Positions 10,303 to 46,346 of a stretch of DNA of 64,000 nucleotides are shown in pieces. The notes beneath the pieces were generated by a model. The model was not told the DNA's origin. It worked only from the letters and a program-made list of their open reading frames with translations, and ran no database searches. The position numbers and the translations under genes are program-made. Positions within the stretch are counted from its first letter, which is position 1. Every line of letters begins with the position of its first letter. Source of the DNA: Escherichia coli (GTDB lineage Bacteria; Pseudomonadota; Gammaproteobacteria; Enterobacterales; Enterobacteriaceae). The stretch is from NCBI GenBank assembly GCA_009729775.1, contig GCA_009729775.1_4081.1. One strand, given 5' to 3'.

Positions 10303-10520
10303 ACCTCTTGTTTTTCTACGTAGCCTTTCCCATCACAGTGTGGACAAGCATAAAAGCTGCGGTAATCTTCTGACGGTACTTGTTGTGTTCCATTACATGT
10401 AGGACATACTTTACGTGCACCCGAAATAATACGTTCATGGTGTTCAGCTTGTTTAGCTGAATCAAAAATACGACCATCTTCAGTTTGGTATTTTTCTACC
10501 ATAACTTGAATTACTTTCAT
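10293..10520 (-). CDS. zinc-ribbon protein
   Basis: 75 aa; CPTCNG...CPHCDGKG (CxxC...CxxC). Confidence 0.55.
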   Translation of the reverse strand: MKVIQVMVEKYQTEDGRIFDSAKQAEHHERIISGARKVCPTCNGTQQVPSEDYRSFYACPHCDGKGYVEKQEVWK

Positions 10521-10530
10521 TTCTATTTCC

Positions 10531-10800
10531 TTATAAAAATGTTAAATCTTCAGTACTTAATTGTGATAATTTACCATCATATTCAATTTCAACATATACA
10601 TTTTGGTCATAAACAGCAACTACACGTTTAATAACTCCAACCTTCACGACATTCTTTTTGTAGTTGAACTCAACTGAACAACCAATAAGTTTATTTGATA
10701 GAATCTCACGTATTTGATTTGCATGATCTTTTAGGATAGAATTAATAGATTTTTTCATAATATATCTATCATTCAAATATTTTTTAACTACATCATGCAT
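10531..10800 (-). CDS. small hypothetical protein (family C-like)
   Basis: 89 aa; N-terminal helix then LIGCSV...V.V...YDG beta-rich pattern shared with other small ORFs. Confidence 0.45.
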   Translation of the reverse strand: MHDVVKKYLNDRYIMKKSINSILKDHANQIREILSNKLIGCSVEFNYKKNVVKVGVIKRVVAVYDQNVYVEIEYDGKLSQLSTEDLTFL

Positions 10801-10805
10801 AATTA

Positions 10806-11549
10806 TTACCTTTTGAAACGATTGAATGAGTACTCATCTTTTTCTTTACGTAAGTATCTCATTCCACCACTTTGTGGAGTAGCGAGAGTTAAGTCACCCG
10901 TCAAGAACTGACTATCAATCCATATGCGATTTCCGTAAATGAGTGGGTCTGTAACTGCTGTATGTCCACTAAAGACACAATGCACTCCATCTAACTTAGG
11001 TGCATAATATGTATTATTAGTTCTACAATAATCGAATGTTTTTCTATCCCACAAGCACTTATCAATTATATCAGCACTAAGTGATTTTGTCCCATTGACA
11101 AATCGTTCCCATGTTGTATATTCCAACGGAACTCCAGCATGAACTAACCCAATCTTCAATCCTCGGTGATTGATTTGGATAATCATAGGGAGATCCTTTA
11201 AGTACTGACGAAAGAATTGAATGCCTGTTCCCCCAACTTCATCAAGGAATTTATCACCACCATTACTTATCCAACAGTGATACCAATCTCGAAGTGTTTC
11301 CGAATCAACGCACATCATCTCATGATTACCAGCAATCATGTAACGATTTTCTCCGAACAAAAATTCAAAAAGGAGCTTTGAATTTTGTTCTCCACGGTCG
11401 ATAATATCACCTACACTGAAAACATAATCATTGTGTGTAATACCAAATTCTTTCACTGTAGCATCCCATAGTTTACCATTACCATGCAAATCACCTACAA
11501 TGTATAAATCTTTATCATCAGGTACGGTTACTTCTAAGAAGTGTTTCAT
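10806..11549 (-). CDS. PPP-family Ser/Thr protein phosphatase (lambda-phosphatase-like)
   Basis: GDLHGN, GDIIDRG, GNHE motifs; start trimmed to MKHFLEV with GGAG RBS. Confidence 0.8.
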   Translation of the reverse strand: MKHFLEVTVPDDKDLYIVGDLHGNGKLWDATVKEFGITHNDYVFSVGDIIDRGEQNSKLLFEFLFGENRYMIAGNHEMMCVDSETLRDWYHCWISNGGDKFLDEVGGTGIQFFRQYLKDLPMIIQINHRGLKIGLVHAGVPLEYTTWERFVNGTKSLSADIIDKCLWDRKTFDYCRTNNTYYAPKLDGVHCVFSGHTAVTDPLIYGNRIWIDSQFLTGDLTLATPQSGGMRYLRKEKDEYSFNRFKR

Positions 11550-11551
11550 TA

Positions 11552-11803
11552 TTACTCCAACCATATAATATTAGTGTGTTTAGTAACTTGTGTTCCAGCA
11601 AAAGAACCATCTTTAAGATAAGTATTAATTTTAAAACGCCATTCACCCCCACTAATATACATATCAGTAATAATATACTTTCCATACCCTCTGGAGTTTA
11701 TTAATCGTACTTCTTGACCAATATATTTTGGCTTCAGATCATTTATAAAATCATCAGCCAAAGACATAAGATATCGCAAATGTGATAAGTCGGTGTTGAA
11801 CAT
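11552..11803 (-). CDS. small hypothetical protein (family C-like)
   Basis: 83 aa; KYIGQEVRL...G.W.F.I pattern. Confidence 0.45.
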   Translation of the reverse strand: MFNTDLSHLRYLMSLADDFINDLKPKYIGQEVRLINSRGYGKYIITDMYISGGEWRFKINTYLKDGSFAGTQVTKHTNIIWLE

Positions 11804-12018
11804 TATTTCTTTCTCTTATATTTGTTAATAATATCTTGGGTAAGTGAAATAAAAATATATACTAACGTTACAGGCCAAATAATAGCCATCAGTGCTGCTG
11901 TTTGGAGATTCATGATAATCATGATTTCATCTTTAAAACAACCCCAATTAAGTACTAGAAAGTTGGTTATAAATGTAACAAATGCTACAAAACCATATAT
12001 TGCAAAAAATGTTATCAT
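11803..12018 (-). CDS. small membrane protein
   Basis: 71 aa, two hydrophobic helices. Confidence 0.45.
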   Translation of the reverse strand: MITFFAIYGFVAFVTFITNFLVLNWGCFKDEIMIIMNLQTAALMAIIWPVTLVYIFISLTQDIINKYKRKK

Positions 12019-12020
12019 AA

Positions 12021-12350
12021 TTATTCCTCATCATCCACTAAAACAAGATAATCCAAACTTAACTCGGTATCTATGTAACAATCACAATTCAAGTACTCAA
12101 TTTCAGCACCTATAGTTCTCCCATTCTTAAATATCTCAATGATTTTCATTCTAGTATTGGGATTAATGTGTTCAATGTCGTATTCGTATTCAGGGTCAAT
12201 ATACTCACTTGTCATACGTTTGATGTATTGTTCCGAATATCGTACAGTTTTACCTATAAGATCATTACTCAACGTCTGATAAAAATCATCTTGAATTTTG
12301 AATAATGACCTATAAAAAATATTATGTTGAATTAGTGGTTTCATTGACAT
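12021..12350 (-). CDS. small hypothetical protein (family C-like)
   Basis: 109 aa ORF. Confidence 0.45.
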   Translation of the reverse strand: MSMKPLIQHNIFYRSLFKIQDDFYQTLSNDLIGKTVRYSEQYIKRMTSEYIDPEYEYDIEHINPNTRMKIIEIFKNGRTIGAEIEYLNCDCYIDTELSLDYLVLVDDEE

Positions 12351-12979
12351 TAATCACAACTTCCAGACGATGAACTTGAATCAGAACTAGAGCTATCATA
12401 GGAACAAGAATCAGAGGAAGAACTGCTGTGACGGCTATAATCACTGTAATCATCATTGTTGTAGATTGGTGATGTTACGATTGCTGCTGCGGTCGCTGCC
12501 GTTGCAATTTGTGCAGTATGGTCATGAACACCTAGTTGTGGTTCATCCTTAGATTTACCTTTGTTCTTACCTTTAGTGTAACGAGCTTTCTTTGCAGTTT
12601 TAGTATTTTTCTGTACTTTAGGAGCTTTTGGTTTCACATCTTCAACTACTGGAACTACATTCACTACAACTTTAGGATCAGTTTCTTCAAGTGTATTATA
12701 CACTTTAACTTGCATTTGAACTTCAACTTCTTTAACTTCTTCTTTAACTTCTGGAATAACTGTTTCTGGTGCTGGAGTGATTTTATCAAGTTCTTTAGTA
12801 ATAAAGAAGCTTGTATTTTTCTCACCTAGCATAACAAGAAGACCAATGGCAATCACTGGACTTAGTACTGTACCAAGTACTACATAACCTAGAACACTTC
12901 TGTTATAGTTATATGCAAGCATACCAGAAATAATAATACCGATTACATATGCACTGCTAAGAATAATTGGGGTTAACAT
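12350..12979 (-). CDS. membrane protein with Lys-rich linker and Ser/Asp-rich low-complexity tail
   Basis: 209 aa; two N-terminal TM helices, EVKEEVKEVEV, KGKNKGKSK, C-terminal SSSSSDSCSYDSSSSDSSSSSGSCD. Confidence 0.55.
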   Translation of the reverse strand: MLTPIILSSAYVIGIIISGMLAYNYNRSVLGYVVLGTVLSPVIAIGLLVMLGEKNTSFFITKELDKITPAPETVIPEVKEEVKEVEVQMQVKVYNTLEETDPKVVVNVVPVVEDVKPKAPKVQKNTKTAKKARYTKGKNKGKSKDEPQLGVHDHTAQIATAATAAAIVTSPIYNNDDYSDYSRHSSSSSDSCSYDSSSSDSSSSSGSCD

Positions 12980-13283
12980 ATTCTACTCCTTTGTATATAA
13001 ATTTACTAACTTCTTCGATGTATAAAGACGTTCCTGAACGTTCATTTAGAACTAACCAAGCACCAAAACCACATCGAATCTCGGATATATGAAACTCTTC
13101 TACACTATAATTTGAATACGCGTTAAATGGACATATTTCATCAGATATACTTACCACATAGTTATTATTAATTGAATCTAACACCTGGGTATTGTATAAA
13201 TTATTAGTACTGAAAATCTGCATTAACGAGCTAGAAAGCATCTCGGTTGTCTTTTCTAATATTGTTAAAAACGAACCATTCAC
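12957..13283 (-). CDS. hypothetical protein
   Basis: 108 aa ORF. Confidence 0.45.
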   Translation of the reverse strand: MNGSFLTILEKTTEMLSSSLMQIFSTNNLYNTQVLDSINNNYVVSISDEICPFNAYSNYSVEEFHISEIRCGFGAWLVLNERSGTSLYIEEVSKFIYKGVEYVNPNYS

Positions 13284-13340
13284 TTCAACTTCTCCCTATT
13301 GGTGATGTAATCAAATTATATCACCGAATTCTGATACGTC

Positions 13341-13646
13341 TCATGATATTCGCATTTCATCTATATATAATGAACATGATTCAGAATTATCGTCTAAACT
13401 TAAACCTAAATCGACCATTAAACCACAATGCGTTCCCCAGAATTTTTTTATGTATAGTTTTTTGCTACTATTACCTAAATCATAAACATATTCATTTTTA
13501 AACATACTTTTTAATTCTTCACATATACATTTTACTATCTTCATTAATTGATTATGATATTCGTATGGTATCCCATCAAGTTCGTTAATTATTAATGCAA
13601 AACCATTATCATAGTACTTTAGCTTATTGAATGTTTGTATATCCAT
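13341..13646 (-). CDS. hypothetical protein
   Basis: 101 aa ORF. Confidence 0.45.
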   Translation of the reverse strand: MDIQTFNKLKYYDNGFALIINELDGIPYEYHNQLMKIVKCICEELKSMFKNEYVYDLGNSSKKLYIKKFWGTHCGLMVDLGLSLDDNSESCSLYIDEMRIS

Positions 13647-13943
13647 TTAATATATAATCTCACTAGCTTCTATTGTGTAGACACCATCATCAGTCATTAA
13701 TCTTACTGCAACTTTAATATTACTAGACATTCGTGTAACTATCAATCCAATAATTATACCATTCTTTAAAGTACCATTATGGTATCTAACTTTTACTTCA
13801 GTTTTATTATCAATTAAGTATCTTCTAATTATGTGTATTTCATTTCTGAATAATTCTAAAAAAGCTTCACTATTTTCTTTATCTGACCCGTCTGAACACC
13901 AGTACAATAAATTTACTTGTTCAAATAATTTTTTTATATTCAT
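13647..13943 (-). CDS. small hypothetical protein (family C-like)
   Basis: 98 aa ORF. Confidence 0.45.
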   Translation of the reverse strand: MNIKKLFEQVNLLYWCSDGSDKENSEAFLELFRNEIHIIRRYLIDNKTEVKVRYHNGTLKNGIIIGLIVTRMSSNIKVAVRLMTDDGVYTIEASEIIY

Positions 13944-14299
13944 AAAAATCTCACAGATTTAATATTACTGGTTACATGATTTACCCAAGTGTTATCGAAC
14001 TTGTAAACAATTGTATTAAGTGATTTATGAAAATTAACCTCGCACACTAATGCCTTGGAACCATTGATTGTACAGACCGTGGATGGTAAGTTGTTTGCTA
14101 ATATCTCTTTTTCATCTAAACAAAGTGAACTAATACAATCATAATAGAGAGGTTCAAGAACTTTTTCAGTACTGAGAAATTCAAAAGAAAGATCATCTAT
14201 TAGTTTTATGTAATCGAATAAATTATGATAATATTCATTCATTGTAGATCCTTTTAAATTTAGCATTATTAGAATATGTATATGAATGACCAAAATCAT
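13940..14299 (-). CDS. hypothetical protein
   Basis: 119 aa ORF. Confidence 0.45.
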   Translation of the reverse strand: MILVIHIHILIMLNLKGSTMNEYYHNLFDYIKLIDDLSFEFLSTEKVLEPLYYDCISSLCLDEKEILANNLPSTVCTINGSKALVCEVNFHKSLNTIVYKFDNTWVNHVTSNIKSVRFL

Positions 14300-14489
14300 T
14301 TACACCATGTACATTTAGTACACCGTCACTGAAATAAATTCGATCAATAGTGAGTTCACGTTTATAATCCCAATCATCATACCAGCACAGAACACGAATA
14401 CCTTTGTACTTTGTAGTTAAATCATTTTCTAATATAGTCAAGTAATCAATATGACTTTTGAATATCTCTAAGTCCTGCTCAAACATCAT
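14235..14489 (-). CDS. small hypothetical protein (family C-like)
   Basis: 84 aa; KYKGIRVLCW pattern. Confidence 0.45.
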   Translation of the reverse strand: MMFEQDLEIFKSHIDYLTILENDLTTKYKGIRVLCWYDDWDYKRELTIDRIYFSDGVLNVHGVNDFGHSYTYSNNAKFKRIYNE

Positions 14490-14746
14490 TGTTCCTCGTA
14501 TAATTCTATATCATCAACTCCAACTTGGCGAATTGCAGTACTTCTGTTGAATGTATTTTTTTCAAACAAACATACTGTTAAACGTATTTCACACTTCAAT
14601 GCACTGTAATAAATCATATCAATAACACCATATGTTTCATACATTTCTACGTATACATTTCGACCTAAATACTTTTCTTCTAAATCAGTAATTAGACTAT
14701 TGATAAGATTACCTATCTGTGTTATATCTGTGTGAAATTTATCCAT
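14486..14746 (-). CDS. small hypothetical protein (family C-like)
   Basis: 86 aa; KYLGRNVYVE pattern. Confidence 0.45.
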   Translation of the reverse strand: MDKFHTDITQIGNLINSLITDLEEKYLGRNVYVEMYETYGVIDMIYYSALKCEIRLTVCLFEKNTFNRSTAIRQVGVDDIELYEEQ

Positions 14747-14923
14747 TATAATAAACCTCTCACATAAAACATTGATGAAAATAGATAATCATTAGTACTT
14801 GTGTTTAGTTGTTTAGAAAAGTTATATTTTTTATCTTTATTTTCGTATAAAGACAATCTATAGAACATTTCTATATTTTCTAAGTATTCTTTTTGTAACA
14901 ACATCTGTGTTTTTACATTCATT
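14746..14923 (-). CDS. small hypothetical protein
   Basis: Track ORF 14746..14991 trimmed to internal Met (MNVKTQ) because a hairpin and the PNK 3' end occupy the upstream part. Confidence 0.3.
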
Positions 14924-14940
14924 ATAATATACCTTAAAAG

Positions 14941-14970
14941 AAAAAGGGACCAACATATGATCCCTTTTGT
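14941..14970 (-). terminator. possible weak terminator after pseT
   Basis: A5-GGGA-loop-TCCC-T4; short stem, low confidence. Confidence 0.3.
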
Positions 14971-14971
14971 A

Positions 14972-15904
14972 TTAGAAATTTCCTTCTGCAACTTGCATTA
15001 CTTTCAAGCCAAGTAGCTTACGCCACATGAATACAACTTGATCGCGGTCATCATAAACCTTTTTAACATCGTAATGATCAACCACATTTTTCATGTACAG
15101 GTCGAATTTTACAACATCATCGGGACGTTTATCATCTATGTCTCGCATAAACAATGCATCGTAAGGAATACCCCAATTCTTAAGCCACTGTTCGGTATCA
15201 GCACGACACCCTTCAGTACGCCCACTCATGACGATAATCTTGCGTTTATGAAAAACTGCTTCAGCGATAATAGACAAAATAACTTCTTCATCTGGTGTAT
15301 CCTGAAGAACAGTACTTTCATCGTAAGGATTACGACCCCATTTATGAGCAAGAGTACCGTCAATATCAACGATAACAGCAGCTTCTCGTGAATTACCATA
15401 GTAACCAATGTGCATGGCCTTACTATAATAGTACGTATCTGCCATAGTGTCAATGATATTATCTTGTACTGAACGCTCACGCATGAGGTTACGTTTCTTA
15501 CAAAGTTTTACGAACTCTTTAATCTTAAAGAAAACATGAACATCTGCACCACGATCTTCATTCGGTACAAAATCTTCGTAGAAGTTCTTTTCTTTGTAGT
15601 CGTATTCATTATCTTTAGCCCAACGTTTCCATTCATCACGGAAATGTTGTTTAAGGTTCGTATCGGACACAATGATGTTCCAACCATTCTCTGCTGCTGA
15701 ATTTGCTGCACTGAACTGCATTTTAGTTACGTACTGCTCATTAGCGTCGTTGAATTTGTATGCATCATGTGACCCTGCCATTGATTCTCGAATGTCATCA
15801 CGGTTAATGTTGATAGTCTTCGATTTGGCATTTTTAATTTCTTGAACTGCCCATGTGGTTTTACCACAACCAGGCAACCCAACTGTTAGTGTAATAGTTG
15901 GCAT
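14972..15904 (-). CDS. pseT: polynucleotide 5'-kinase / 3'-phosphatase (T4 PseT-like)
   Basis: 310 aa; P-loop GLPGCGKTTWA, NINRDD, VIVDIDGTLA (HAD DxDGT), KVYDDRDQVV; collinear with T4 Pnk (GCPGSGKSTWA...NINRDD...FDVDGTLA). Confidence 0.9.
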   Translation of the reverse strand: MPTITLTVGLPGCGKTTWAVQEIKNAKSKTININRDDIRESMAGSHDAYKFNDANEQYVTKMQFSAANSAAENGWNIIVSDTNLKQHFRDEWKRWAKDNEYDYKEKNFYEDFVPNEDRGADVHVFFKIKEFVKLCKKRNLMRERSVQDNIIDTMADTYYYSKAMHIGYYGNSREAAVIVDIDGTLAHKWGRNPYDESTVLQDTPDEEVILSIIAEAVFHKRKIIVMSGRTEGCRADTEQWLKNWGIPYDALFMRDIDDKRPDDVVKFDLYMKNVVDHYDVKKVYDDRDQVVFMWRKLLGLKVMQVAEGNF

Positions 15905-15916
15905 TATTACTCCTTG

Positions 15917-16231
15917 TTACTCAATGAATTCTACATCTTCGAGTTTGTGCCATCCTCTTGAAAGGTTTCTTGTTCCGTTATTGTATTCAGTGTATACAAA
16001 GCATTCACCATTTACTAAATTACCAATAGCAGTACGCGATACTTTAACATCAAGAATTATAGTACTGAACCATTCTCTGATTGTATGATCCCAGCATTTA
16101 ACTTTACATCCAATCAATGTTTTCTTAAAATCGAAAACGTAATCTTCGACCATTGATTCGACAGATTCTATTAGTTCCTTTTCAATGTACTTTAACTTTT
16201 CGATCCTCTCAAATGCAAGTTCTTTATTCAT
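15917..16231 (-). CDS. small hypothetical protein (family C-like)
   Basis: 104 aa ORF. Confidence 0.45.
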   Translation of the reverse strand: MNKELAFERIEKLKYIEKELIESVESMVEDYVFDFKKTLIGCKVKCWDHTIREWFSTIILDVKVSRTAIGNLVNGECFVYTEYNNGTRNLSRGWHKLEDVEFIE

Positions 16232-16237
16232 ATGTCC

Positions 16238-16492
16238 TCAATTATCTAGAACATCCACTATCAAACAAGCTTCAATAACGAAACAATCATCTAATTCAAA
16301 GAGTAATTGATAGTCATCAGAAAACTTCACTTTAGTAATGTAAGCACTTTCAATTCCACCACTATGATAAGAACTATATAAAATACATTTACCTGTATAT
16401 TCCTTACGGATACGACTAAATTCTTCATATAAATGAGTAATAAACGTATCCGCAGTTTTGTTGTAGTATTTTAGGTCACTTACTGTGCTCAT
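16238..16492 (-). CDS. small hypothetical protein (family C-like)
   Basis: 84 aa ORF. Confidence 0.45.
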   Translation of the reverse strand: MSTVSDLKYYNKTADTFITHLYEEFSRIRKEYTGKCILYSSYHSGGIESAYITKVKFSDDYQLLFELDDCFVIEACLIVDVLDN

Positions 16493-16706
16493 TAACTTTT
16501 CCTACTCCAAATCGTTTGGAGATTTTCACAAGTACAGATTCATCACAACGAATACTAGCTGTATCATTGGATGAACTGTACTTTAATGGGGTCCACTGTA
16601 ATTGAGATTCTTCTAGGAACTTGATACATCTGAAGTAATCTTTCAGAGAAAGAAATTTAACTACTGACATATCCTGAACAATACTATGCTGAACTTCAAC
16701 TTTCAT
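16476..16706 (-). CDS. small hypothetical protein
   Basis: 76 aa ORF. Confidence 0.4.
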   Translation of the reverse strand: MKVEVQHSIVQDMSVVKFLSLKDYFRCIKFLEESQLQWTPLKYSSSNDTASIRCDESVLVKISKRFGVGKVNEHSK

Positions 16707-16715
16707 ATGAACTCC

Positions 16716-16973
16716 TTATAGTGGATCAAATTTATTTTCACGTTTCGATGTATAGCGAGTTACATCATGTATTCTCGGCTTAACACCTTTTGGTTTCCTT
16801 TTCTTCTTGTATTCAGTACTACTACATCCGAAGGTATTCTCGATTCGTTTCTTACTTATCTTCACACCTTTCATTGAGCGTTTGTGCTGTAATTCATCGA
16901 TTTCTTCTTGTATTTTCCTGAACTCAGTCGGAGAAAGGGAACCGTCATTTTTATACTTAGGTTTAGCCATCAC
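16716..16973 (-). CDS. small basic Lys/Arg-rich protein (possible nucleic-acid binding)
   Basis: 85 aa, KKRKPKGVKPR; AAGGAG RBS. Confidence 0.5.
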   Translation of the reverse strand: MMAKPKYKNDGSLSPTEFRKIQEEIDELQHKRSMKGVKISKKRIENTFGCSSTEYKKKRKPKGVKPRIHDVTRYTSKRENKFDPL

Positions 16974-17000
16974 TTCTCCTTGTGCTTAGGCTAGATAGTA

Positions 17001-18143
17001 CTAAAAATCCTTTAGTACAATTTTCATGTATTTTATAAGAGTCTCTTTGTAATCAACTTTCTTATTGTTATACATTGCAAAGGCCAAGCCCTGACGATTC
17101 AGTTCATTAGTTAAACACTCCTGAACCTTCATTGCGAATTCCTTTCGCTCCAAGTGCTTGTGTTCCTTGACGAAGCTTTCTACTTCATCTTGTAATGCAT
17201 TATAGCACGAAAATACCAATTGTTCCATTCTTAATATCTTTTGCATAGCATATTCATCAGTACTGAACAATTGTTTTAAATCATCACTAGAACCATTTAA
17301 TACTGCTTCATATAAATGAGAATCAATAATAATACTATCTTTTGTAAGATGTAATGAACTGTACCAGTCAGTCTTTATTTTACACATTGTCCCATTATTT
17401 AGGATGCACACAAAACCCTCAATATCAAGCATTTTATGAACTTCCTCCACGCTTTCACGGAAGGTATTTCGTACCGGAAAAGTGTGATGAATATCTTTTC
17501 CAGTCATATTAGTACTGTACTGTGCAAGACATGGAAACTTATCACGTAGTGCTTTACCACATAGCAACTCACCACTCACACGATGACGAACGTTCAGTAC
17601 AAACAGTTGTTCTACCTGATATGGTAATACAATTCGGTACTCTGGGCTTGTATACTCCATATTAACTGTGTAACCTAAACGTTCCGCTTCGTCGATGTAC
17701 TGATACAAATTCTGGTTCTCGTTAATAAGTCGAGTACTGTTAATCGCATGGTCAGAGTACAATGCAGTATGTGATTTACAACGAATCTCACCATCATTAT
17801 CACGGTAAGTACTGATTACTGAACCATCCAACTTAGGCATCACTACTGCAATGTCATTACATGTGGTGTTGGCAGGGAACATTGTAGCAGGATTCTCATA
17901 AGCATTAAAGAACTTTTTCATAGTACGGGCAGCACAACGAATCATTTCACCTTCTTCATCAATTTCCCACATAGATCCACGGGTTTCTAATGCATTGGGT
18001 TGCATGAAATCAGTATATGATGCTAGTCGGTAACTGAATACACGATACGTGCCACCAGCAGGACTTTTATGATCTACATAAAAGAACGCATCGTTTGTAT
18101 TACATAAGTGCATTAAATCTTCATATATTTGCAAAAGGGTCAT
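17001..18143 (-). CDS. rnlA: RNA ligase 1 (T4 Rnl1 / gp63-like)
   Basis: 380 aa; YRVFSYRLASYTDF, ETRGSMWE, nucleotidyl-transfer motif KLDGSV, IEGFVCI, KIKTDWY; collinear with T4 Rnl1 (YRIFSYNYASYSDW...KEDGSL...KIKSDWY). Confidence 0.9.
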   Translation of the reverse strand: MTLLQIYEDLMHLCNTNDAFFYVDHKSPAGGTYRVFSYRLASYTDFMQPNALETRGSMWEIDEEGEMIRCAARTMKKFFNAYENPATMFPANTTCNDIAVVMPKLDGSVISTYRDNDGEIRCKSHTALYSDHAINSTRLINENQNLYQYIDEAERLGYTVNMEYTSPEYRIVLPYQVEQLFVLNVRHRVSGELLCGKALRDKFPCLAQYSTNMTGKDIHHTFPVRNTFRESVEEVHKMLDIEGFVCILNNGTMCKIKTDWYSSLHLTKDSIIIDSHLYEAVLNGSSDDLKQLFSTDEYAMQKILRMEQLVFSCYNALQDEVESFVKEHKHLERKEFAMKVQECLTNELNRQGLAFAMYNNKKVDYKETLIKYMKIVLKDF

Positions 18144-18448
18144 TTTATTACCTCTATATCTACATCAGTTCCATAATATGATATTAATCCATCATCAGAT
18201 TCACACTGAATAGACAACTCAGATTCATAGTATGTTACTTTATTCACTGTTAGTACGTGTTCTTCAATTTTTCCAGAAAAATAATTCATTTCACGCACAC
18301 GAACTTTAGTTCCTTTAGGTAGTTCATCTGAGATTTTTTGAACAAGTTCATAAGCAGCCTGTTCAAGTGTGTACAGTAATTGTAATCTATCTTGAATATT
18401 CATATTATTTCCACCAACTTGTATCACGTCCATTAGACAAAGATTCAT
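18140..18448 (-). CDS. small hypothetical protein (family C-like)
   Basis: 102 aa ORF. Confidence 0.45.
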   Translation of the reverse strand: MNLCLMDVIQVGGNNMNIQDRLQLLYTLEQAAYELVQKISDELPKGTKVRVREMNYFSGKIEEHVLTVNKVTYYESELSIQCESDDGLISYYGTDVDIEVIK

Positions 18449-19094
18449 TGTACTGATGCCTAAAATTAGTTTTTGGATTATTGTTCATAGTACTAATAAA
18501 ATCAAATTTAACATTCTCTTGAATATATTTTTTAACACTATCTTTAAATTTAATAGTACTGAAGTCTAAATCTAGATGTTCATACAATACCGGATGACAA
18601 AACTCATGTGTACGCAACGATGGCATAGTATCCTTAATGTATTGCACAGTGTTAATCATTGCATTGTATTCAGGCATAGCACGCATCATCATTAGCTGAA
18701 AGTGTTCTTCCTCTGACATTGACTCATCCAAATCAATAACGACTTCATCATTTTTAGAGTCATAAACTTTAATGGTACTCTTGGTTGGATCAAGCATCGC
18801 CCACTCTGGATACAGGCATGTTTTCCAAAAAGGATTATTGCACTGAAACATACTAATGAGATTTTGATCTTTATCAAAAATAGCAAATCCAAGATCCGAA
18901 CTTGGTTGTACTTCACATACACAAATATCGTAAGACGAGTCTTCAGTACTGAGTGAACCAACTACATTTGATATATGTGAATATGGAGTTTCTCTTGACT
19001 CCAACTGAAATGTACTTTCAATTCGATTGATTTGTGGATGTAATGTAATTACACCCCTTAGTACATATAAAATTCTATCTAAATCTTTAATCAA
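18405..19094 (-). CDS. family A paralog (outlier)
   Basis: 229 aa; motif SEEEHFQLMMM. Confidence 0.5.
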   Translation of the reverse strand: MIKDLDRILYVLRGVITLHPQINRIESTFQLESRETPYSHISNVVGSLSTEDSSYDICVCEVQPSSDLGFAIFDKDQNLISMFQCNNPFWKTCLYPEWAMLDPTKSTIKVYDSKNDEVVIDLDESMSEEEHFQLMMMRAMPEYNAMINTVQYIKDTMPSLRTHEFCHPVLYEHLDLDFSTIKFKDSVKKYIQENVKFDFISTMNNNPKTNFRHQYNESLSNGRDTSWWK

Positions 19095-19669
19095 AATTCT
19101 ATCCCCGTATCGGTTAATTTCGTTCCGTCCATGTACTTAACAGTTATTTCAATGCGTCGATCAGTACTCAATTTTTGAAGATCATTGTAGTACAATTTAA
19201 ATTCTTCAAAGAACTCAAGTGGTGGAATATCGTATAAAGTACTAATCTGGAAGTGCTCAGGTAATCCAAATTCCAATATATCAATCTTAGGCATAAGTCC
19301 ATCGGCTGCTGCACCTTCTGGAGTACTGCTGTCTGCTACATAAAACATAGAATTACCATGACGCTGGATAACGAATATGCAATCATCTTCACTTACATAA
19401 ATCATATTTCCAAGGTATGGATCGTTATCACACCAATTATCATGGACGAGTTGTTCAACTTGAAGTAAATCTTTTATAATTCCCTGACCACTATCGTCAA
19501 CTAGAATATGTAAACCAGAACAATCTTTGCTCAACCAGCGGTATCTTGCATCACATCCTGATTCCATAAATGGATATTTTGAAAAATCCATATCAGTACC
19601 ATTATAAAACCAATCGTACCACTCGTTACGCATAGTAATCAGCTTAGTACTTAATTCTAATACATTCAT
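19091..19669 (-). CDS. family A paralog (outlier)
   Basis: 192 aa; motif PEHFQISTLYD...FEEF. Confidence 0.55.
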   Translation of the reverse strand: MNVLELSTKLITMRNEWYDWFYNGTDMDFSKYPFMESGCDARYRWLSKDCSGLHILVDDSGQGIIKDLLQVEQLVHDNWCDNDPYLGNMIYVSEDDCIFVIQRHGNSMFYVADSSTPEGAAADGLMPKIDILEFGLPEHFQISTLYDIPPLEFFEEFKLYYNDLQKLSTDRRIEITVKYMDGTKLTDTGIEF

Positions 19670-19676
19670 TTTAGTT

Positions 19677-19979
19677 TTATCCTCTTAATTTAATAGTACT
19701 GGCTGGATATTCTACCAAAGTATTATCAGGTAATCCTATACAGTAATAAGGGAAATACCCCATCTTTATATTAATACCAATTAAAATTCCTGTTTTATAT
19801 GAAGTATTAATTCCATAGTAATCGTCTATATCAACAGCAAGTCCATATAATGATATGTTACAATCCTTGATATATCGGTCAAACATTTTATACATTGCAG
19901 AATATAAAGTTCCATTGGATTGTCTCACCAAATCAGCCAACATTTTGATAGTACTGTTAATTAAATCTATACTGAACAT
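19677..19979 (-). CDS. small hypothetical protein
   Basis: 100 aa ORF. Confidence 0.45.
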   Translation of the reverse strand: MFSIDLINSTIKMLADLVRQSNGTLYSAMYKMFDRYIKDCNISLYGLAVDIDDYYGINTSYKTGILIGINIKMGYFPYYCIGLPDNTLVEYPASTIKLRG

Positions 19980-19992
19980 CTTTGTACCTGCG

Positions 19993-20016
19993 AAAAAAGA
20001 CCAGCAAACGCTGGCC
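19993..20016 (-). terminator. rho-independent terminator
   Basis: Minus strand GGCCAGC-gttt-GCTGGTC followed by TTTTTT. Confidence 0.55.
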
Positions 20017-20023
20017 TAAGAAT

Positions 20024-20305
20024 TTAAATTATTTCATAAAGACAATATACACCATCAACACCAGCATCAGGAAAATCAACATAGAAATTCACACTAACAG
20101 TGTCGTAATCTATATCAGTGATTCGTCCGGTTTTACCTACACTTTTTACAAATATATCAGTACCAAGATACACAAACTCAAATTCGTCAGCATACTCTTT
20201 TATGATATCTGCGAACCAACAACCACACCTAGGTTCTGTGTTAATAATTTCAAGATATAATGTAATATATTGTTCGTATGTCCATGTGTGTAGATAAAAA
20301 TCCAT
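20024..20305 (-). CDS. small hypothetical protein (family C-like)
   Basis: 93 aa ORF. Confidence 0.45.
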   Translation of the reverse strand: MDFYLHTWTYEQYITLYLEIINTEPRCGCWFADIIKEYADEFEFVYLGTDIFVKSVGKTGRITDIDYDTVSVNFYVDFPDAGVDGVYCLYEII

Positions 20306-20315
20306 AGCAGTTTCC

Positions 20316-21053
20316 TTAGAAATATATCATACCCATCAATTCAGAATCGGCGGGGCGAGTATAACCTTGCTTCTTAACTTTAAAATAGAATGATTCATGC
20401 TCTTCTAAATTATAACGTTTTTTCAAGCAACGAGTGTATGTCTGACAATTTGGGTGAACCCATTCATAAATGTGAATGCCATTTTCGTCATAACCATTTA
20501 TACTACAACGATTTCCTTCATGCTTCATAAAGTTTTTACTTTTTTCAGTAAATTCTTTCACTGTAGTTGTATATGGAGATTTGTATTCAAAAGGAACTTC
20601 AGTCATACGAAAATAATAGTATTCTTCGTCTTCATCATATCCCAAGAGCACTGTGTTAGTTTCACGTACATTGTAATGATTCTTACTTTTTAATTCATTT
20701 TCGTATATATCTTTCAGTACTTCTGCAAAAACTTCATCGCTTGATGCATTAGGATTAGATACACCTGATACTCGGCGTTCAATAATAAAATCAGTGAATT
20801 TGCGGTCTTCGGCAATATCTTCGTTCATATAAAGACTAACAAACTTATCCTTATATGTCTTTACACTATATTGCTTACTTTGTACTTCACTATAAACATC
20901 TGCTAACATATTCTCCTGACCACACTGCACACCACTTACAGAATAAGCACATGCATGTTCAGCCATTACTGATGTTAACATTTGGAAATTTGCCATGTTT
21001 AATTCATTCGCCATCTCTGTAGCGAAACGGATACGGTCAAGCATTTCACACAC
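20316..21053 (-). CDS. hypothetical protein
   Basis: 245 aa; AAGGAG RBS. Confidence 0.55.
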   Translation of the reverse strand: MCEMLDRIRFATEMANELNMANFQMLTSVMAEHACAYSVSGVQCGQENMLADVYSEVQSKQYSVKTYKDKFVSLYMNEDIAEDRKFTDFIIERRVSGVSNPNASSDEVFAEVLKDIYENELKSKNHYNVRETNTVLLGYDEDEEYYYFRMTEVPFEYKSPYTTTVKEFTEKSKNFMKHEGNRCSINGYDENGIHIYEWVHPNCQTYTRCLKKRYNLEEHESFYFKVKKQGYTRPADSELMGMIYF

Positions 21054-21084
21054 TCCTTGTGTTAATTATTGTTCCTTACCCATT

Positions 21085-21113
21085 ATTATATCATGAATTA
21101 AACTATTGTCCCT
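21085..21113 (-). promoter_or_regulatory. possible promoter with extended -10 (TGaTATAAT) upstream of 20316..21053
   Basis: Reverse complement contains catgaTATAAT about 30 nt before the ATG; -35 element weak. Confidence 0.3.
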
Positions 21114-21399
21114 GTTTATAGCAATAAAGATTCTCTAATTTAAAGTCCACTAGGTCACATTCAGAACGTACTCGATTCTTGTTCCAGAATAAAATACGAA
21201 TCCTTTCATAATCACGATAAACACTAATAATGCTTCGGTGCTTGGATTTGTAGTACTCCTGTACTATCCCCAGATACACAGTCCTCAATAAAGACTTAGT
21301 TGGATAGGGCATATTCTGTGCTGACGTGATATTGTAAATCATCTTCATTGTTTCAGCAATAAGTACTTCATTTGTTCTCATTGTAATCCTTACATACAC
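21103..21399 (-). CDS. hypothetical protein
   Basis: 98 aa ORF. Confidence 0.45.
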   Translation of the reverse strand: MYVRITMRTNEVLIAETMKMIYNITSAQNMPYPTKSLLRTVYLGIVQEYYKSKHRSIISVYRDYERIRILFWNKNRVRSECDLVDFKLENLYCYKQGQ

Positions 21400-21540
21400 T
21401 ATGCAAAGTAAACCCTAAACCAACACCGACAAATGGAAATAGTAAATTGATATACCAAGTATTAATTGATGAAAGGAAACAAATCCCACATACTGTCAGT
21501 ACTGCCAATGAAAAAAGACTCCAGATAAAAAATACTGTTC

Positions 21541-21831
21541 TCATAAAAATGTTACCTCATCAAATGAAAAGTTTAAGTACGTTGTTGAATCTTGGTCTAA
21601 ACTATGAATAGTAATATGACCATTGAAATAAAAAGAAACATCAACTATTTGAAGTTTTGGGTATTTTCTAGTACTGAAATACCTTCCTACTACTAAGTCA
21701 GAAAACATATTTCTGTATTCTTGTGTTACGTTTTTGTATAGGTTATGTAGAGCACTTTCTTGTGAATCGAAAGTAATGGAATAATCTTTCACCAATATAG
21801 CATATGTTTTCTGCATTAAAATGATATTCAT
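21541..21831 (-). CDS. small hypothetical protein (family C-like)
   Basis: 96 aa ORF. Confidence 0.45.
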   Translation of the reverse strand: MNIILMQKTYAILVKDYSITFDSQESALHNLYKNVTQEYRNMFSDLVVGRYFSTRKYPKLQIVDVSFYFNGHITIHSLDQDSTTYLNFSFDEVTFL

Positions 21832-22088
21832 AAATCTCCTAATACCTCAAAAATTACTGATATTGGGTATAATGGGTTACCAGTTGAAGTAATACATACA
21901 ATTAGTACGTTTTTTCCTGGTCCCACATCCGTTATAGTGAAATTAATATTATTAATATTCAGTGATTTACCAATATAATGCTCTTTCAATAATTCAACAA
22001 AATAATCCAGTACTGGATTATCTGCACTATATGATAACTCAGTACTTGATATCATTTTATATGTATGAACTATTAGTTCAGCTTTAGT
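21828..22088 (-). CDS. hypothetical protein
   Basis: Track ORF 21828..22214 trimmed to Met giving ATGA overlap with the upstream zinc-ribbon gene. Confidence 0.45.
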   Translation of the reverse strand, partial: TKAELIVHTYKMISSTELSYSADNPVLDYFVELLKEHYIGKSLNINNINFTITDVGPGKNVLIVCITSTGNPLYPISVIFEVLGDL

Positions 22089-22284
22089 CATGAACACGCT
22101 CACAATTAAGGCAATAAATGCACTCAATGTCAGGTCGCCATGATTTATCAAAATCTTTGTGCTGTTCTTCGGTGTATTCTGCATCATCATTAATAGGGAA
22201 GAAATCACCAGCACCAGTCGCCCAGTCTGAATCTAAACGGAAACGAGCTAATTGAGTACTGTTACAATATGGACACTTATTCAA
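22084..22284 (-). CDS. zinc-ribbon protein
   Basis: 66 aa; CPYCNS...CIYCLNC. Confidence 0.5.
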   Translation of the reverse strand: MNKCPYCNSTQLARFRLDSDWATGAGDFFPINDDAEYTEEQHKDFDKSWRPDIECIYCLNCERVHD

Positions 22285-22561
22285 AATTTATTCCTTCTAA
22301 CTGATATACGTTTAATGAAAATGACCCACTATTATTATCGCATCTGAAACACAGTGTTAAAGAACCATTAAAACTAACTACATCCGTACAGATACATTTT
22401 TCACCATTGGATATGATAGATTTTCCTATATATAAATCTCTTACTATAGTACGGTAATGTTGCCATAAAAAATAATACACACTTTCATAGTACTCATCTT
22501 TTACATATGATAAGTATAAGAATTTATAAAATACTTGTATTTCCTTTAAGTTGTTTTTCAT
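22277..22561 (-). CDS. family C tandem paralog
   Basis: 94 aa; N-terminus EIQVFYKFLYLSY, then YIGKS...G.L.L. Confidence 0.5.
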   Translation of the reverse strand: MKNNLKEIQVFYKFLYLSYVKDEYYESVYYFLWQHYRTIVRDLYIGKSIISNGEKCICTDVVSFNGSLTLCFRCDNNSGSFSLNVYQLEGINFE

Positions 22562-22835
22562 TCTCCAACTCCAGTAAATTTACACCAATCCAATCAACAT
22601 CACTATCAGTACTTAATTCCAATCGTAGCTTACCGCTATGACTAACAATATCGCGGAATTTGTATATTTTATTATCACGAACTATACACAAATCATGGTA
22701 ATATTCATGTAATTCATCCAAAAACTTTATCCATACCGAACGATAGATTTCACCGTAGAGATATTCTCCAGCATCAACCGTAGCGTATTGGATATACAAA
22801 AATTTATATGTGAATTGTATATCATTTAATAACAT
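22524..22835 (-). CDS. family C tandem paralog
   Basis: 103 aa; N-terminus LLNDIQFTYKFLYIQY. Confidence 0.5.
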   Translation of the reverse strand: MLLNDIQFTYKFLYIQYATVDAGEYLYGEIYRSVWIKFLDELHEYYHDLCIVRDNKIYKFRDIVSHSGKLRLELSTDSDVDWIGVNLLELENEKQLKGNTSIL

Positions 22836-22845
22836 ATGTAACCTC

Positions 22846-23157
22846 TTATAAATTCACCAACTTCACAACTTTAATCTCGATAAATCCCCTATCGGTTATT
22901 TCAAGAAATTCAACATGGATAATCCCATTGTATGATTTAACTCCAGAGAACTCGAATATATCATTTCCGTCGATAAAAGTACTGTAATTCTTTTTTATAT
23001 ATTCACCTACTGAATCTAAGTACTCAATATATAAATCAATAAATGGTTGTTCTTTGTATGGGTTATGTGAACCTATTTTGTTACTAACAAGGTATACATC
23101 ATACAAATCATATAGGATCTTATAAGTGAATTGTATATCATTTAAATTTAATCCCAA
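22846..23157 (-). CDS. family C tandem paralog
   Basis: 103 aa; N-terminus LNLNDIQFTYKILYDLY. Confidence 0.5.
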   Translation of the reverse strand: MGLNLNDIQFTYKILYDLYDVYLVSNKIGSHNPYKEQPFIDLYIEYLDSVGEYIKKNYSTFIDGNDIFEFSGVKSYNGIIHVEFLEITDRGFIEIKVVKLVNL

Positions 23158-23414
23158 GGGAATATCTCCAACGGAATACTGGTAAATCCAAAATCAGTGT
23201 AGTACTGAACCTCAACTTTACCATCACGTCTAATGATTATATCAGAAAATTCTGCATGGTCATCACCAATAATAACAGTACTGAATTTTTTTTTAATCTT
23301 ACCACGAATCGTATGAATCATTTCAGTGCATGTGTCTTCTAGACTAGGGCTATCATTGTCGTGTGCTAAATCTCGAATAATCTTGTATGTTAGTAGGAAA
23401 TCTTTATAATTCAT
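23148..23414 (-). CDS. family C tandem paralog
   Basis: 88 aa; N-terminus MNYKDFLLTYKIIRDL. Confidence 0.5.
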   Translation of the reverse strand: MNYKDFLLTYKIIRDLAHDNDSPSLEDTCTEMIHTIRGKIKKKFSTVIIGDDHAEFSDIIIRRDGKVEVQYYTDFGFTSIPLEIFPWD

Positions 23415-23686
23415 ATGTCCACCAAATCTATACTATATCTTTCATTAGTATTACTATCTATAAATGATAGTACTAATTTACCACCAAAACTATTAACTTG
23501 TTCTATCTTCTGTTTTTTACCACGAATGATTATCTCACTATTAACAAAATATTCACGTATCATTATTAAGTGATTAATCCAGATAGTATGAGTGAATGTG
23601 TTTTCTCGTATTGTATTGAGATATCTTCCATTGTGATGTAAATCAAACAAAACACTGTATGTATATTGTAGAACTTTATAATTCAT
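23411..23686 (-). CDS. family C tandem paralog
   Basis: 91 aa; N-terminus MNYKVLQYTYSVLFDL; AAGGGGA RBS. Confidence 0.5.
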   Translation of the reverse strand: MNYKVLQYTYSVLFDLHHNGRYLNTIRENTFTHTIWINHLIMIREYFVNSEIIIRGKKQKIEQVNSFGGKLVLSFIDSNTNERYSIDLVDI

Positions 23687-23702
23687 ATATCCCCTTACAA
23701 AA

Positions 23703-23727
23703 ATAGCCCGAACTTATGTCGGGCTAT
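23703..23727 (-). terminator. rho-independent terminator
   Basis: ATAGCCCGA-actta-TGTCGGGCTAT; minus strand followed by TTTTTGT. Confidence 0.7.
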
Positions 23728-23732
23728 GTACA

Positions 23733-24419: not shown

Positions 24420-24627
24420 TTACACCAATTTTGATTTCACATATGTTATTTGATTTACTCGCTTCAGTCAATAACATTTTGTGCTCTTTACTGAAAGTGT
24501 GGAACAGTGGTTTGACATGCCACATTTCGATACCATCCAGTACTGAAAATTTTTCACTAAATTTAATCATTGATTCTTGTAAAAAATATCCTGTAAGATT
24601 TATTTCATCACACATGCAAGTTTCCAA
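24328..24627 (-). CDS. hypothetical protein
   Basis: 99 aa ORF; 3' end overlaps 23733..24419 by about 90 nt. Confidence 0.35.
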   Translation of the reverse strand: METCMCDEINLTGYFLQESMIKFSEKFSVLDGIEMWHVKPLFHTFSKEHKMLLTEASKSNNICEIKIGVNVYKGMVIFFDNNSNYFYIVKEHYVDKYKY

Positions 24628-45595: not shown

Positions 45596-46041
45596 TCGAA
45601 TGTAGCCTCTTCAGTAGTAACAAAATTGGTTAGTGTATCCAGTTCAGCAGTGTCAAGATAAAATACATCTAGTACAGATTTCTGATATATTACACTGAAT
45701 GTGCATAGATTGTCAAGTGTCCCTTGTTCATAAACAGTACTACCCTGGAAGTACCCTTCTTCAGTACTCAGGGATAAAATATCTGAAATTTTAAAAGATT
45801 CTTCAGTTGCATGTCTTTCTATATTAACTATATTGCCGTTTCGGTTCAATGAAATATAATCGTATGCTAACTCAATTAGACTATAATTATCCGCATTAGT
45901 GTCAAATAAAGCGACAATTTTTCGTCTCAATCTCTCATCGTGATCATGGTTTTCATCAGCTAAGTATTCAGGATTTTCTTTGAAGAATTTAACGACGCGT
46001 AGAATATCATTTGCTTTCTTGATTGCACTTTCGTAACTCAT
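45592..46041 (-). CDS. family A paralog
   Basis: motif TEEGYFQGSTVY; N-terminus MSYESAIKKANDIL. Confidence 0.6.
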   Translation of the reverse strand: MSYESAIKKANDILRVVKFFKENPEYLADENHDHDERLRRKIVALFDTNADNYSLIELAYDYISLNRNGNIVNIERHATEESFKISDILSLSTEEGYFQGSTVYEQGTLDNLCTFSVIYQKSVLDVFYLDTAELDTLTNFVTTEEATFE

Positions 46042-46346
46042 AATAATTCAACCACTCCATCTCTAAAGTACATATAACTACCACCATTGGATACTGTGAA
46101 TTCTATTGTCCCCAATAATATATTATATTTTTTTATTTCACATGTAGTACTTGTAGTGTAAGGCTCACCATCTCCTAAGTACATTGACATATGACATAGA
46201 ACTTTTCTACCAGCATATTTCTCTTCAAACGATTGTTCAAAACTATGCATAATTTGATTTAAAGCTGAAATGTAATTAATAAAGTCAGGTATTTCTGTTA
46301 ATGAATTATAAACCGTACAAAGTGAATCAAATTCATTTTTAGTCAT
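46038..46346 (-). CDS. small hypothetical protein (family C-like, embedded in family A array)
   Basis: 102 aa; KYAGRKVLCH...GG beta-rich C-terminus. Confidence 0.45.
   Translation of the reverse strand: MTKNEFDSLCTVYNSLTEIPDFINYISALNQIMHSFEQSFEEKYAGRKVLCHMSMYLGDGEPYTTSTTCEIKKYNILLGTIEFTVSNGGSYMYFRDGVVELL

Follow-up and report, generated by a model that had tools for sequence, protein, structure and literature searches.

What are the many small open reading frames (ORFs) that surround the RNA-repair genes of a jumbo phage, and are they relatives of one another? The stretch analysed here (the window, 64,000 nucleotides) is DNA of an Asteriusvirus jumbo coliphage, to which the phage phAPEC6 is 98% identical, and more than 80% of the genes in these 350-kb phages are without assigned function. 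A sequence-only reading had proposed five tandem genes, with tentative dispersed copies, as a multigene family of small effectors. The comparison of the 152 ORFs of the window upholds such a family with tandem and dispersed copies, about 19 members sharing a common architecture and predicted fold. The small-protein family is real and has no record as a single family in the databases searched. It is highly probable that the 19 small proteins (83–109 aa) constitute one lineage-specific superfamily, and that family, membership and fold have been assigned correctly. The explanation as a whole (a single superfamily, local duplication, fast divergence and a role as binding modules) is favoured by a narrower measure of confidence.

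Nearly all of the family genes lie within 13 kb around the phage RNA-repair genes. Of the stretch from 10.5 to 23.7 kb the block makes up about 38% by length and about half by gene number, and its genes are interleaved with conserved enzymes, i.e., a Ser/Thr phosphatase, the PseT kinase-phosphatase and the RnlA RNA ligase.

The tandem genes and their close kin

The five tandem genes at 22277..23686 are exact co-directional minus-strand ORFs:

23411..23686, minus strand: tandem copy 1, 91 aa, phrog_32291, SD AAGGGG
23148..23414, minus strand: tandem copy 2, 88 aa, phrog_35943
22846..23157, minus strand: tandem copy 3, 103 aa, TTG start, phrog_21004
22524..22835, minus strand: tandem copy 4, 103 aa, phrog_21004
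22277..22561, minus strand: tandem copy 5, 94 aa, retaining the LYIGKSII junction
23703..23727, minus strand: terminator-like hairpin (9-bp stem and T-run), immediately upstream of tandem copy 1

All five copies are chained by pairwise BLASTP within the 152-ORF set (E 7e-7 to 4e-5, 24–31% identity) and are joined by hhalign with a probability of 99.8–100%, while phrog_21004 matches its two members strongly and the other three more weakly. The N-termini described earlier as common do align across the five copies, as MN(Y/L)(K/N)D(I/L)Q(F)TYKxLYDL. The C-terminal pattern fared only in part: the G-K-L-x-L strand stands, both a Tyr and a Gly being invariant in ...G(K)LxL..., and the Y-(I/L)-G-(K/R) element is found in only one of the five copies (22277, LYIGKS); its variants FIGK and FVGK are common in the more distant tandem-type relatives P0070–P0076. 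A sigma-70 consensus scan gave 83 sites vs 87 expected. Three further ORFs belong with the tandem group, the last of them as a probable member and the weakest of the 19:

21828..22091, minus strand: member, 87 aa from an internal ATG, HYIGKSLNI
21541..21831, minus strand: member, 96 aa, phrog_28826
21103..21381, minus strand: probable member, 92 aa

Both 21828 (hhalign P ~8e-5 to the tandem profiles; gene calls of 87 aa in A4 and metagenome contigs) and 21541 (tandem HMM E 0.0034; hhalign P 4.8e-5 to 22277) cluster with the tandem group in phmmer, and a Zn-ribbon ORF (22084–22284) stands between 21828 and the tandem five. The ORF at 21103 is linked to the 22846 profile (hhalign P 4e-5), with a leave-out HMM z of 3.4 that was reached by 4/300 shuffles.

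The dispersed members

Membership was evaluated by profile-profile comparison (hhalign) and by leave-orthogroup-out HMMs, with reversed, shuffled and out-of-region controls. The following dispersed members were placed in this way (z, leave-out HMM):

20024..20305, minus strand: member, 93 aa, VYLGTDIFV, hhalign P 3.5e-4 to 4.5e-4, z=8.7
18140..18403, minus strand: member, 87 aa from an internal ATG, z=6.2
16238..16492, minus strand: member, 84 aa, EYTGKCILY, z=8.1
15917..16231, minus strand: member, 104 aa, TLIGCKVKC, z=11.7
14486..14746, minus strand: member, 86 aa, KYLGRNVYV, z=8.7
14235..14489, minus strand: member, 84 aa, KYKGIRVLC, z=4.2
13647..13943, minus strand: member, 98 aa, RaK2 relatives ORF471 and ORF478, z=8.8
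12021..12350, minus strand: member, 109 aa, DLIGKTVRY, hhalign probability 89.6% to 11552, z=5.7
11552..11803, minus strand: member and hub of the dispersed subgroup, 83 aa, KYIGQEVRL, z=10.7
10531..10800, minus strand: member, 89 aa, KLIGCSVEF, z=7.9
46038..46346, minus strand: outlying member, 102 aa, KYAGRKVLC, z=11.1

The ORF at 14486 also finds 11552 and 46038 by BLASTP (E 0.007–0.008) and 11552 by hhalign (probability 87.8%), and 18140, of which RaK2 ORF463 is a detectable ortholog, is joined to 14235 over 81 columns (hhalign P 2.6e-4). The suggestion that many small ORFs of the block are further copies holds for 13 ORFs, but not all small ORFs there can be included: no significant family link was found for 10293, 11803, 12957, 13341, 13940, 14746, 16476, 16716, 21368, 22084, 24608 and 19677, the last of which (19677–19979) is marginal (13.8 bits vs 11.7 for the best decoy) and was left out of the count. 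The proposed copy at 46038..46346, placed by both tests above the controls, belongs to the family; it sits inside an array of an unrelated family of ~150–200 aa proteins.

Predicted fold and conserved positions

Each member would consist of one or two N-terminal helices, a [YF]-[IL]-G-[KR]-x-[VI] junction and a 4–5-stranded small β-barrel of the SH3/Tudor-like type, an architecture that was modelled for two representatives and read from the alignment for the remaining 17. In the AF2 model of 22277 (pLDDT 90) helices 5–22 and 28–44 are followed by four strands, and in that of 11552 (pLDDT 74.5), which was built from a heterogeneous alignment and is of moderate confidence only, helix 3–27 is followed by five strands; the order of elements is identical in both models and the motif lies at the junction of helix and strand 1 in each. 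The proteins are mostly acidic (median pI 5.0; 14/19 net negative). No enzyme signature emerged: searches of Pfam and of PDB sequences gave no match, and conservation is limited to a few positions, which hold an aromatic residue and glycines.

The models superpose on several solved SH3, Tudor, KOW and chromo domains, and the predicted small-barrel class is that of the CarD/TRCF RID, the UvrD/PcrA C-terminal Tudor domain, EF-P domain I/KOW, chromo and PWWP domains. However, the window proteins lack a sequence-profile match to the named SH3/Tudor families and carry a long N-terminal helix or helical hairpin in front of the barrel, and neither an aromatic cage nor a KOW signature was identified in the predicted structures. 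Pfam KOW gave no match, and the likeness to Spt5/NusG KOW is at the level of fold only. Foldseek in BFVD pointed to DUF4222 and DUF1653, ~60-aa phage barrels (target-normalised TM 0.63–0.68, E only ~0.02–0.03), which are without the N-terminal helical part and to which the window proteins have no Pfam match.

One family or several?

Among all profile pairs 28/486 passed at P<1e-3, against 0/496 reversed and 0/496 shuffled ones, and within the dispersed set 14/55 pairs passed against none in decoys. Small ORFs from outside the region gave 0 of ~1600 pairs at this threshold, with 46346, of another family, set aside. Dispersed members reached z=4–12 in the leave-orthogroup-out HMM. Decoy-controlled iteration added no further window ORF and gained seven RaK2 and two Erwinia-phage ORFs in a syntenic block. 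In a whole-genome census of a close relative (87–98% identical over the window) 22 ORFs exceeded the best decoy, 19 of which are these genes. The pattern [YFLIVM][LIVYTK]G[KRQCT]x[VIL], drawn up post hoc after the sequences had been inspected, occurs in 10/27 small ORFs inside 10.5–23.7 kb vs 2/60 outside and 1.2 +/- 1.0 (max 5) in shuffles. The sequence-only reading had named chance-level similarity outside the tandem five as its refutation; this was not seen, since the similarities there lie far above chance.

Are the tandem and dispersed subgroups truly homologous? We regard this as likely, and the link between them is moderately supported. The contrary view, that the tandem group (21103–23686) and the dispersed group (10531–20305 and 46038) are unrelated, forming two or more families with a convergent helix-plus-barrel layout and Gly junction, is unlikely. 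It would agree with the merged tandem vs merged dispersed profile comparison (A3 versus A4), which was not significant (P 0.069), with a network that at P<1e-4 falls into exactly these two clusters, and with most tandem copies (22524, 22846 and 23411, as well as 21541) giving no individual score against the dispersed-only HMM; for the first and last of these reasons, the subgroups are tied together by 22277, 21828, five pairwise profile matches and the common predicted architecture. Yet 5/88 tandem-dispersed pairs pass at P<1e-3 and 11/88 at P<3e-3, compared with 0/88 in both decoy sets, 21828 and 22277 reach z=8.2 and z=5.4 against the dispersed-only HMM (for 22277 with its own cluster left out), the motif occupies an equivalent structural position in both models and is widespread among distant tandem-type relatives, and a single 13-kb block holds both groups. 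That only the tandem five are related, the dispersed similarities being chance or composition in an AT-rich genome, can hardly be maintained: single-sequence BLASTP between dispersed members is indeed weak (best E 0.007) and the HMM of the five tandem copies, which is too shallow, barely parts any other window ORF from 10x shuffles (only 21541, borderline), but none of the 992 composition-keeping reversed and column-shuffled pairs passed at P<1e-3, the leave-out z rises to 11.7 and the same fold class comes out of two independent models.

Distribution and turnover

The range of the family is narrow, as an exhaustive HMMER scan of 1.84 billion representatives returned 22 matches, all of them close relatives but for one false positive. 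The latter, P0079, was rejected as a relative, being a 979-aa BspA-like repeat protein matched via a repeated EEVYIGRNI string. In PHROGs v4 the family is spread over ~17 separate unannotated families; searches of Pfam, which holds no model for it, PDB sequences and PHROG gave no annotated relative. KH_KRR1 and SMMA_N were only weak matches of the 10531 group below cutoff, and the link of gp361c to Vibrio phage KVP40 in the phAPEC6 annotation was not borne out, since tblastn at E<=0.01 gives only Asteriusvirus records. The family was not described in the RaK2, CBB, phAPEC6 and fEgEco12 papers or in a jumbo-phage comparative review among the literature searched.

Median identity of the members to their counterparts is 40% in A4 and 37% in Turkey5, compared with 76% and 74% for neighbours (10531: 43% and 34%), and in the accessory blocks alignment is lost at the DNA level. 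Between flanks 97.5–98.7% identical, phAPEC6 carries one 34%-identical member in place of two: it lacks 16238 and has gp373c, 34% identical, in place of 15917. Non-family small ORFs of the same blocks are equally variable, so that fast turnover characterises the blocks in general and is not proof of selection on the family.

Possible origin and role

The family is probably an ordinary accessory-gene expansion. Local duplication, repeated over time, would have enlarged it, and its youngest recognisable array is formed by the five adjacent copies together with 21828 and 21541 just downstream. Quick divergence and cassette exchange between related phages would have followed. In the favoured mechanism the members would act as non-virion intracellular binding modules: the barrel would be the part that binds a host (or phage) protein, while the helix would either lie against the barrel or serve to form dimers. 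Targets or target variants would differ from paralog to paralog, and the outcome would be a repertoire for host takeover or counter-defence under arms-race turnover. SH3-like barrels are functionally promiscuous, and this reading of function rests on genomic context and fold class; a protein-binding takeover or counter-defence function is put forward as a tentative possibility. The phAPEC6 orthologs, gp361c–gp389c, are absent from the 62 virion proteins of Table 1, where mass spectrometry may have missed small proteins (PMC7247149); for the window proteins this is an indirect indication. The earlier name, small effectors, is a reasonable reading of the predicted binding fold, the conservation of structural positions only, the absence from a virion proteome, the hypervariable block adjoining RNA-repair genes and the fast turnover.

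Could the barrels instead bind RNA polymerase (RNAP)? Modelled on CarD, Mfd RID and the UvrD/PcrA C-terminal domains that dock onto the RNAP β subunit, the members might be transcription modulators whose Tudor-like barrel would sit on that subunit and redirect host transcription early; the scanned members gave no match to Pfam CarD_TRCF_RID at E up to 1 or 0.1, and we consider the idea improbable. Still less probable are Sm/Hfq-like RNA-binding rings (an N-terminal helix and a bent five-stranded barrel) that would act on host or phage RNAs, which would suit the position of the genes beside an RNA ligase and a polynucleotide kinase; neither Sm1/Sm2 motifs nor a Pfam LSM/Hfq match was found, and the acidic pI of most members speaks weakly against a ring that binds RNA.

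With the family recognised, ~17 orphan PHROG families would become one structurally defined superfamily (helix and SH3/Tudor-like barrel), which simplifies annotation of the block, and a localised, fast-evolving, non-virion array adjoining RNA-repair (counter-defence) enzymes offers an experimental handle. Should the host targets of the paralogs prove distinct, the family would yield new proteins for host takeover or anti-defence, as well as small scaffolds for binding; otherwise it is one further case of jumbo-phage paralog expansion. A bolder and rather doubtful extension sees in the array a battery of diversified SH3/Tudor-like binders, in which each paralog would neutralise a different host factor or defence system, or a different allelic form of one, and the set would be diversified by the exchange of cassettes among co-circulating jumbo phages. 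If true, this would make available ~19 related scaffolds of differing specificity, a compact set that lends itself to experiment.

Comparison with known systems

In T4-type phages, conserved genes such as rnlA and pseT are surrounded by hyperplastic regions that hold small early accessory ORFs. The window is similar in that conserved enzyme genes are interleaved with one-strand blocks of small, fast-turnover ORFs which differ between close relatives; unlike in T4, a single paralogous family accounts for about half of the small ORFs of these blocks, and homology to T4 ORFs was not detected. The logic of a binder battery would be comparable to that of the multigene families of large eukaryotic DNA viruses. 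Previously described phages likewise have many small co-directional genes without assigned function, in tandem and nearby, confined to one phage clade; in CBB the region is suspected to be early and to take part in host takeover.

Phage identity and genomic setting

Because the interval 10500-24500 is matched by 36 phage records in megablast, 32 of which span 80% of the query or more, with Escherichia phages vB_EcoM_E9.1 and 121Q as best matches (98.5% identity), the window is assigned to an Asteriusvirus (RaK2-like) jumbo coliphage of ~350 kb. The GC content is ~32% and nearly all genes are carried by the minus strand. Family members, all on that strand, are named here by the lower coordinate of the ORF, and their block includes or adjoins several enzyme genes.

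Enzyme genes in and beside the family block
10806-11564, Ser/Thr phosphatase, in the block
14972-15904, PseT polynucleotide kinase-phosphatase, in the block
17001-18143, RnlA RNA ligase, in the block
7254-8672, DNA ligase, just downstream of the block

ORF 9883-10302 is annotated as peptidyl-tRNA hydrolase in phage Turkey5 and as hydrolase in RaK2, and 10293-10520 encodes a mini-protein with a DnaJ-type CxxCxGxG zinc finger. The 209-aa protein of 12350-12979 (-) varies strongly among phages; it begins with two hydrophobic segments, is rich in Lys, Val and Glu in its middle part and ends in a low-complexity tail of mainly Ser and Asp. A separate paralog family occupies 34200-59727 and 18405-19094 (35 ORFs, ~110-225 aa, linked by BLASTP at E<0.01), and profile comparison makes 46346-46660 a short member of it. 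A third family (44694-45084, 57654-58108 and 59717-63972; 21 ORFs, ~63-96 aa) has a [LV]-G-T-[NQ]-[YF]-Q motif common to many of its ORFs.

The five tandem genes

The five tandem genes which the sequence-only reading had placed at 22277..23686 were found exactly there, and their shared N-terminus was recovered by MAFFT as MN-x-x-D-I/L-Q-x-T-Y-K-x-L-Y-D-L, with one invariant Tyr. The C-terminal pattern was borne out in part: the Gly within the ...G-K-L-x-L... strand is invariant, whereas Y-(I/L)-G-(K/R) occurs in one of five copies only (22277, LYIGKS). This string looks ancestral, since it is carried by the majority of the more distant tandem-type relatives that came from a scan of 1.84 billion proteins (FIGK, FVGK). 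Among 152 window ORFs called greedily, the five came out of an all-against-all BLASTP as a separate connected cluster (E 7e-7 to 4e-5, 24-31% identity), and profile-profile probabilities among them are 99.8-100%. Gene 23733-24419 ends shortly before a terminator-like hairpin, 23703-23727 (-), which is immediately upstream of the first tandem gene and is followed by that gene's Shine-Dalgarno sequence and ATG, the former directly. Further such hairpins occur at 19998-20017 (-) and at 14942-14968 (-), the latter just after pseT and within the dubious TTG-start ORF 14746-14991.

Membership of the dispersed copies

Single-sequence BLASTP links among dispersed copies are weak (best E 0.007, for 11552/14486/46038), and an HMM from the tandem five alone set only 21541 apart from shuffles. 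Therefore one profile was built per small ORF (32 ORFs from 10.2-24.7 kb with lengths of 55-135 aa, plus 46038 and 46346), using database homologs and orthologs from syntenic loci of phages A4, Turkey5 and RaK2, Erwinia phage Hallingskeid and Serratia phage BF, and hhalign was run all-against-all. With within-tandem pairs left out, 28 of 486 pairs reached P<1e-3 and nine P<1e-4, compared with 0/496 for reversed and 0/496 for column-shuffled profiles (0/992 together); when the comparison was with 52 small ORFs from other parts of the window, 3 of 1664 pairs did so, each involving 46346. Single linkage at P<1e-3 yielded one component of 19 members, and HMMs leaving out each orthogroup scored dispersed members at z=4-12, each member having been shuffled 300 times for reference. 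A post hoc regular expression for the junction motif, [YFLIVM][LIVYTK]G[KRQCT]x[VIL], matched 10 of the block's 27 small ORFs; outside the block it matched 2 of 60, and shuffled sequences gave 1.2 +/- 1.0 matches. Because of these hhalign, leave-out and motif results against decoys, the membership of the dispersed copies, tentative in the sequence-only reading, stands well above chance; that their similarities are accidental, as the BLASTP values might suggest, is scarcely credible beside the empty decoy sets.

The 979-aa BspA-like leucine-rich-repeat protein P0079, from metagenome/genome data, was rejected as a motif-level false positive: all five of its profile matches come from a recurring 'LEEVYIGRNI' string. 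Taken by itself, the junction motif is therefore not diagnostic.

The tie between tandem and dispersed subgroups seems moderate rather than strong. At P<1e-4 the component splits into a part centred on the tandem five, with 21103, 21541 and 21828 beside them, and a dispersed part (11552, 12021, 14235, 14486, 15917); the merged alignments of the two subgroups matched at P 0.069, which is not significant, although the Gly junction falls in correct register; and once the tandem cluster (52 sequences) was withheld from the HMM, 22524, 22846, 23411 and 21541 gave no score. These results leave some room for unrelated, convergent subfamilies, which we nevertheless regard as unlikely: 21828 and 22277 are still recognised by that HMM (z=8.2 and z=5.4, respectively), and tandem-dispersed pairs reach P<1e-3 in 5 of 88 cases and P<3e-3 in 11, with none in either decoy set.

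Census and range

Iterative, decoy-controlled HMM searching recruited no additional window ORF; at the syntenic loci it recruited 18 ORFs in A4, 12 in Turkey5, 7 in RaK2, 2 in Hallingskeid and 0 in Serratia BF. In ECO103 4-12-1, a complete close relative assembled here (87-98% identical over aligned parts of the window), 22 of 621 ORFs beat the best decoy; 19 are the window's members, and three are marginal (13-14 bits, best decoy 11.7), one of them the counterpart of window 19677-19979. Of the ~19 members, 18 thus fall in a stretch of 13.2 kb and account there for 18 of ~35 genes and ~38% of the DNA. Marginal candidates left out of the member count are window 19677-19979 (-) and ECO103 37306-37596 and 292789-293175.

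No match to members was found in Pfam or among PDB sequences. They fall in separate PHROGs, all of unknown function; phrog_21004 holds two tandem copies and cross-matches the other three weakly. Word-indexed searches of 5.8 billion proteins gave 34 and 35 clusters, in which all named sources are Asteriusvirus-type Escherichia/Salmonella phages or E. coli assemblies and the remainder metagenome sequences. When 1.84 billion representatives were scanned exhaustively with HMMER, 22 matched at E<=1e-3, 21 of them 84-104 aa long and the other the repeat-driven P0079. Gene boundaries were reproduced by independent gene calls on metagenomic contigs. Within reach of sequence methods, the family is restricted to RaK2-like jumbo phages. 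A GenBank note linking phAPEC6 gp361c (L006 32-301, ortholog of 10531-10800) to Vibrio phage KVP40 was not upheld, tblastn at E<=0.01 matching Asteriusvirus only.

Turnover and cassette exchange

The family evolves fast and exchanges cassettes. Median identity to A4/Turkey5 counterparts is 40%/37% for family genes versus 76%/74% for neighbours, and 1 of 18 versus 9 of 21 are recognisable in RaK2. Over the enzymes and the Zn-ribbon ORF 22084-22284 the DNA still aligns with A4 and Turkey5, but in the accessory blocks this alignment is lost; small ORFs outside the family in the same blocks vary equally, which makes turnover a trait of the blocks. In phAPEC6, between flanks 97.5-98.7% identical to the window, 15905-16488 (15917 and 16238) is swapped for a single gene, gp373c (103 aa, L006 5394-5704), which is 34% identical to 15917 and a family member at 20.7 bits. 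The Zn-ribbon ORF (-; 66 aa, CPYC...CLNC) sits inside the family array and is 88% identical at DNA level in A4 and 84% in Turkey5, with flanking family genes replaced; RaK2 ORF454 is syntenic and of the same size.

Predicted structure and possible function

AlphaFold2 modelled 22277, heading a 34-sequence alignment, at pLDDT 90 and pTM 0.79 (helices 5-22 and 28-44, then strands 48-51, 54-64, 67-74 and 80-84), and 11552, heading 38 sequences, at pLDDT 74.5 (helix 3-27, then strands 31-36, 39-51, 54-62, 68-75 and 79-81). In both, the junction motif runs from the last turn of the final helix through the Gly into the beginning of strand 1. Searched in BFVD with Foldseek, the models matched Asteriusvirus proteins only at a significant level; next came weak matches to SH3-like phage DUFs and to two RaK2 proteins. 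On these models and matches, both proteins are predicted to be small barrels of the SH3/Tudor-like class that carry a helical extension at the N-terminus; no closely related solved structure was found. The family is real and localised, its ~19 members having a common predicted helix-plus-small-barrel architecture.

Conservation is confined to a few positions that look structural, namely one aromatic helix residue and glycines, some at the junction and some in a hairpin, and no catalytic signature is apparent. Mass spectrometry identified 62 virion proteins of phAPEC6, and the orthologs gp361c-gp389c are all missing from that set (PMC7247149). For the equivalent block of the related phage CBB, a long run of small genes in one direction, a role as the early host-takeover region is suspected rather than established (PMC5259590). 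We infer that family members may be non-structural binding proteins aimed at host proteins, constituting a host-takeover or counter-defence repertoire, an idea that is testable but unproven. As a special case, the Tudor-like barrels might be RNAP-binding modulators, which we consider improbable. Sm/Hfq-like RNA binding by such barrels is more doubtful still; 14 of 19 members are net acidic (median pI 5.0), which argues weakly against general nucleic-acid binding.

Relation to known systems

No record of the family as a superfamily, uniting many orphan PHROGs by one architecture, was found in the databases and papers searched, and the literature searched on RaK2-like jumbo phages mentions paralogs in general terms only. 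The definition of the family is a solid and useful annotation result, set among jumbo phages in which the expansion of small accessory-gene paralogs is already known, as is the fold class.
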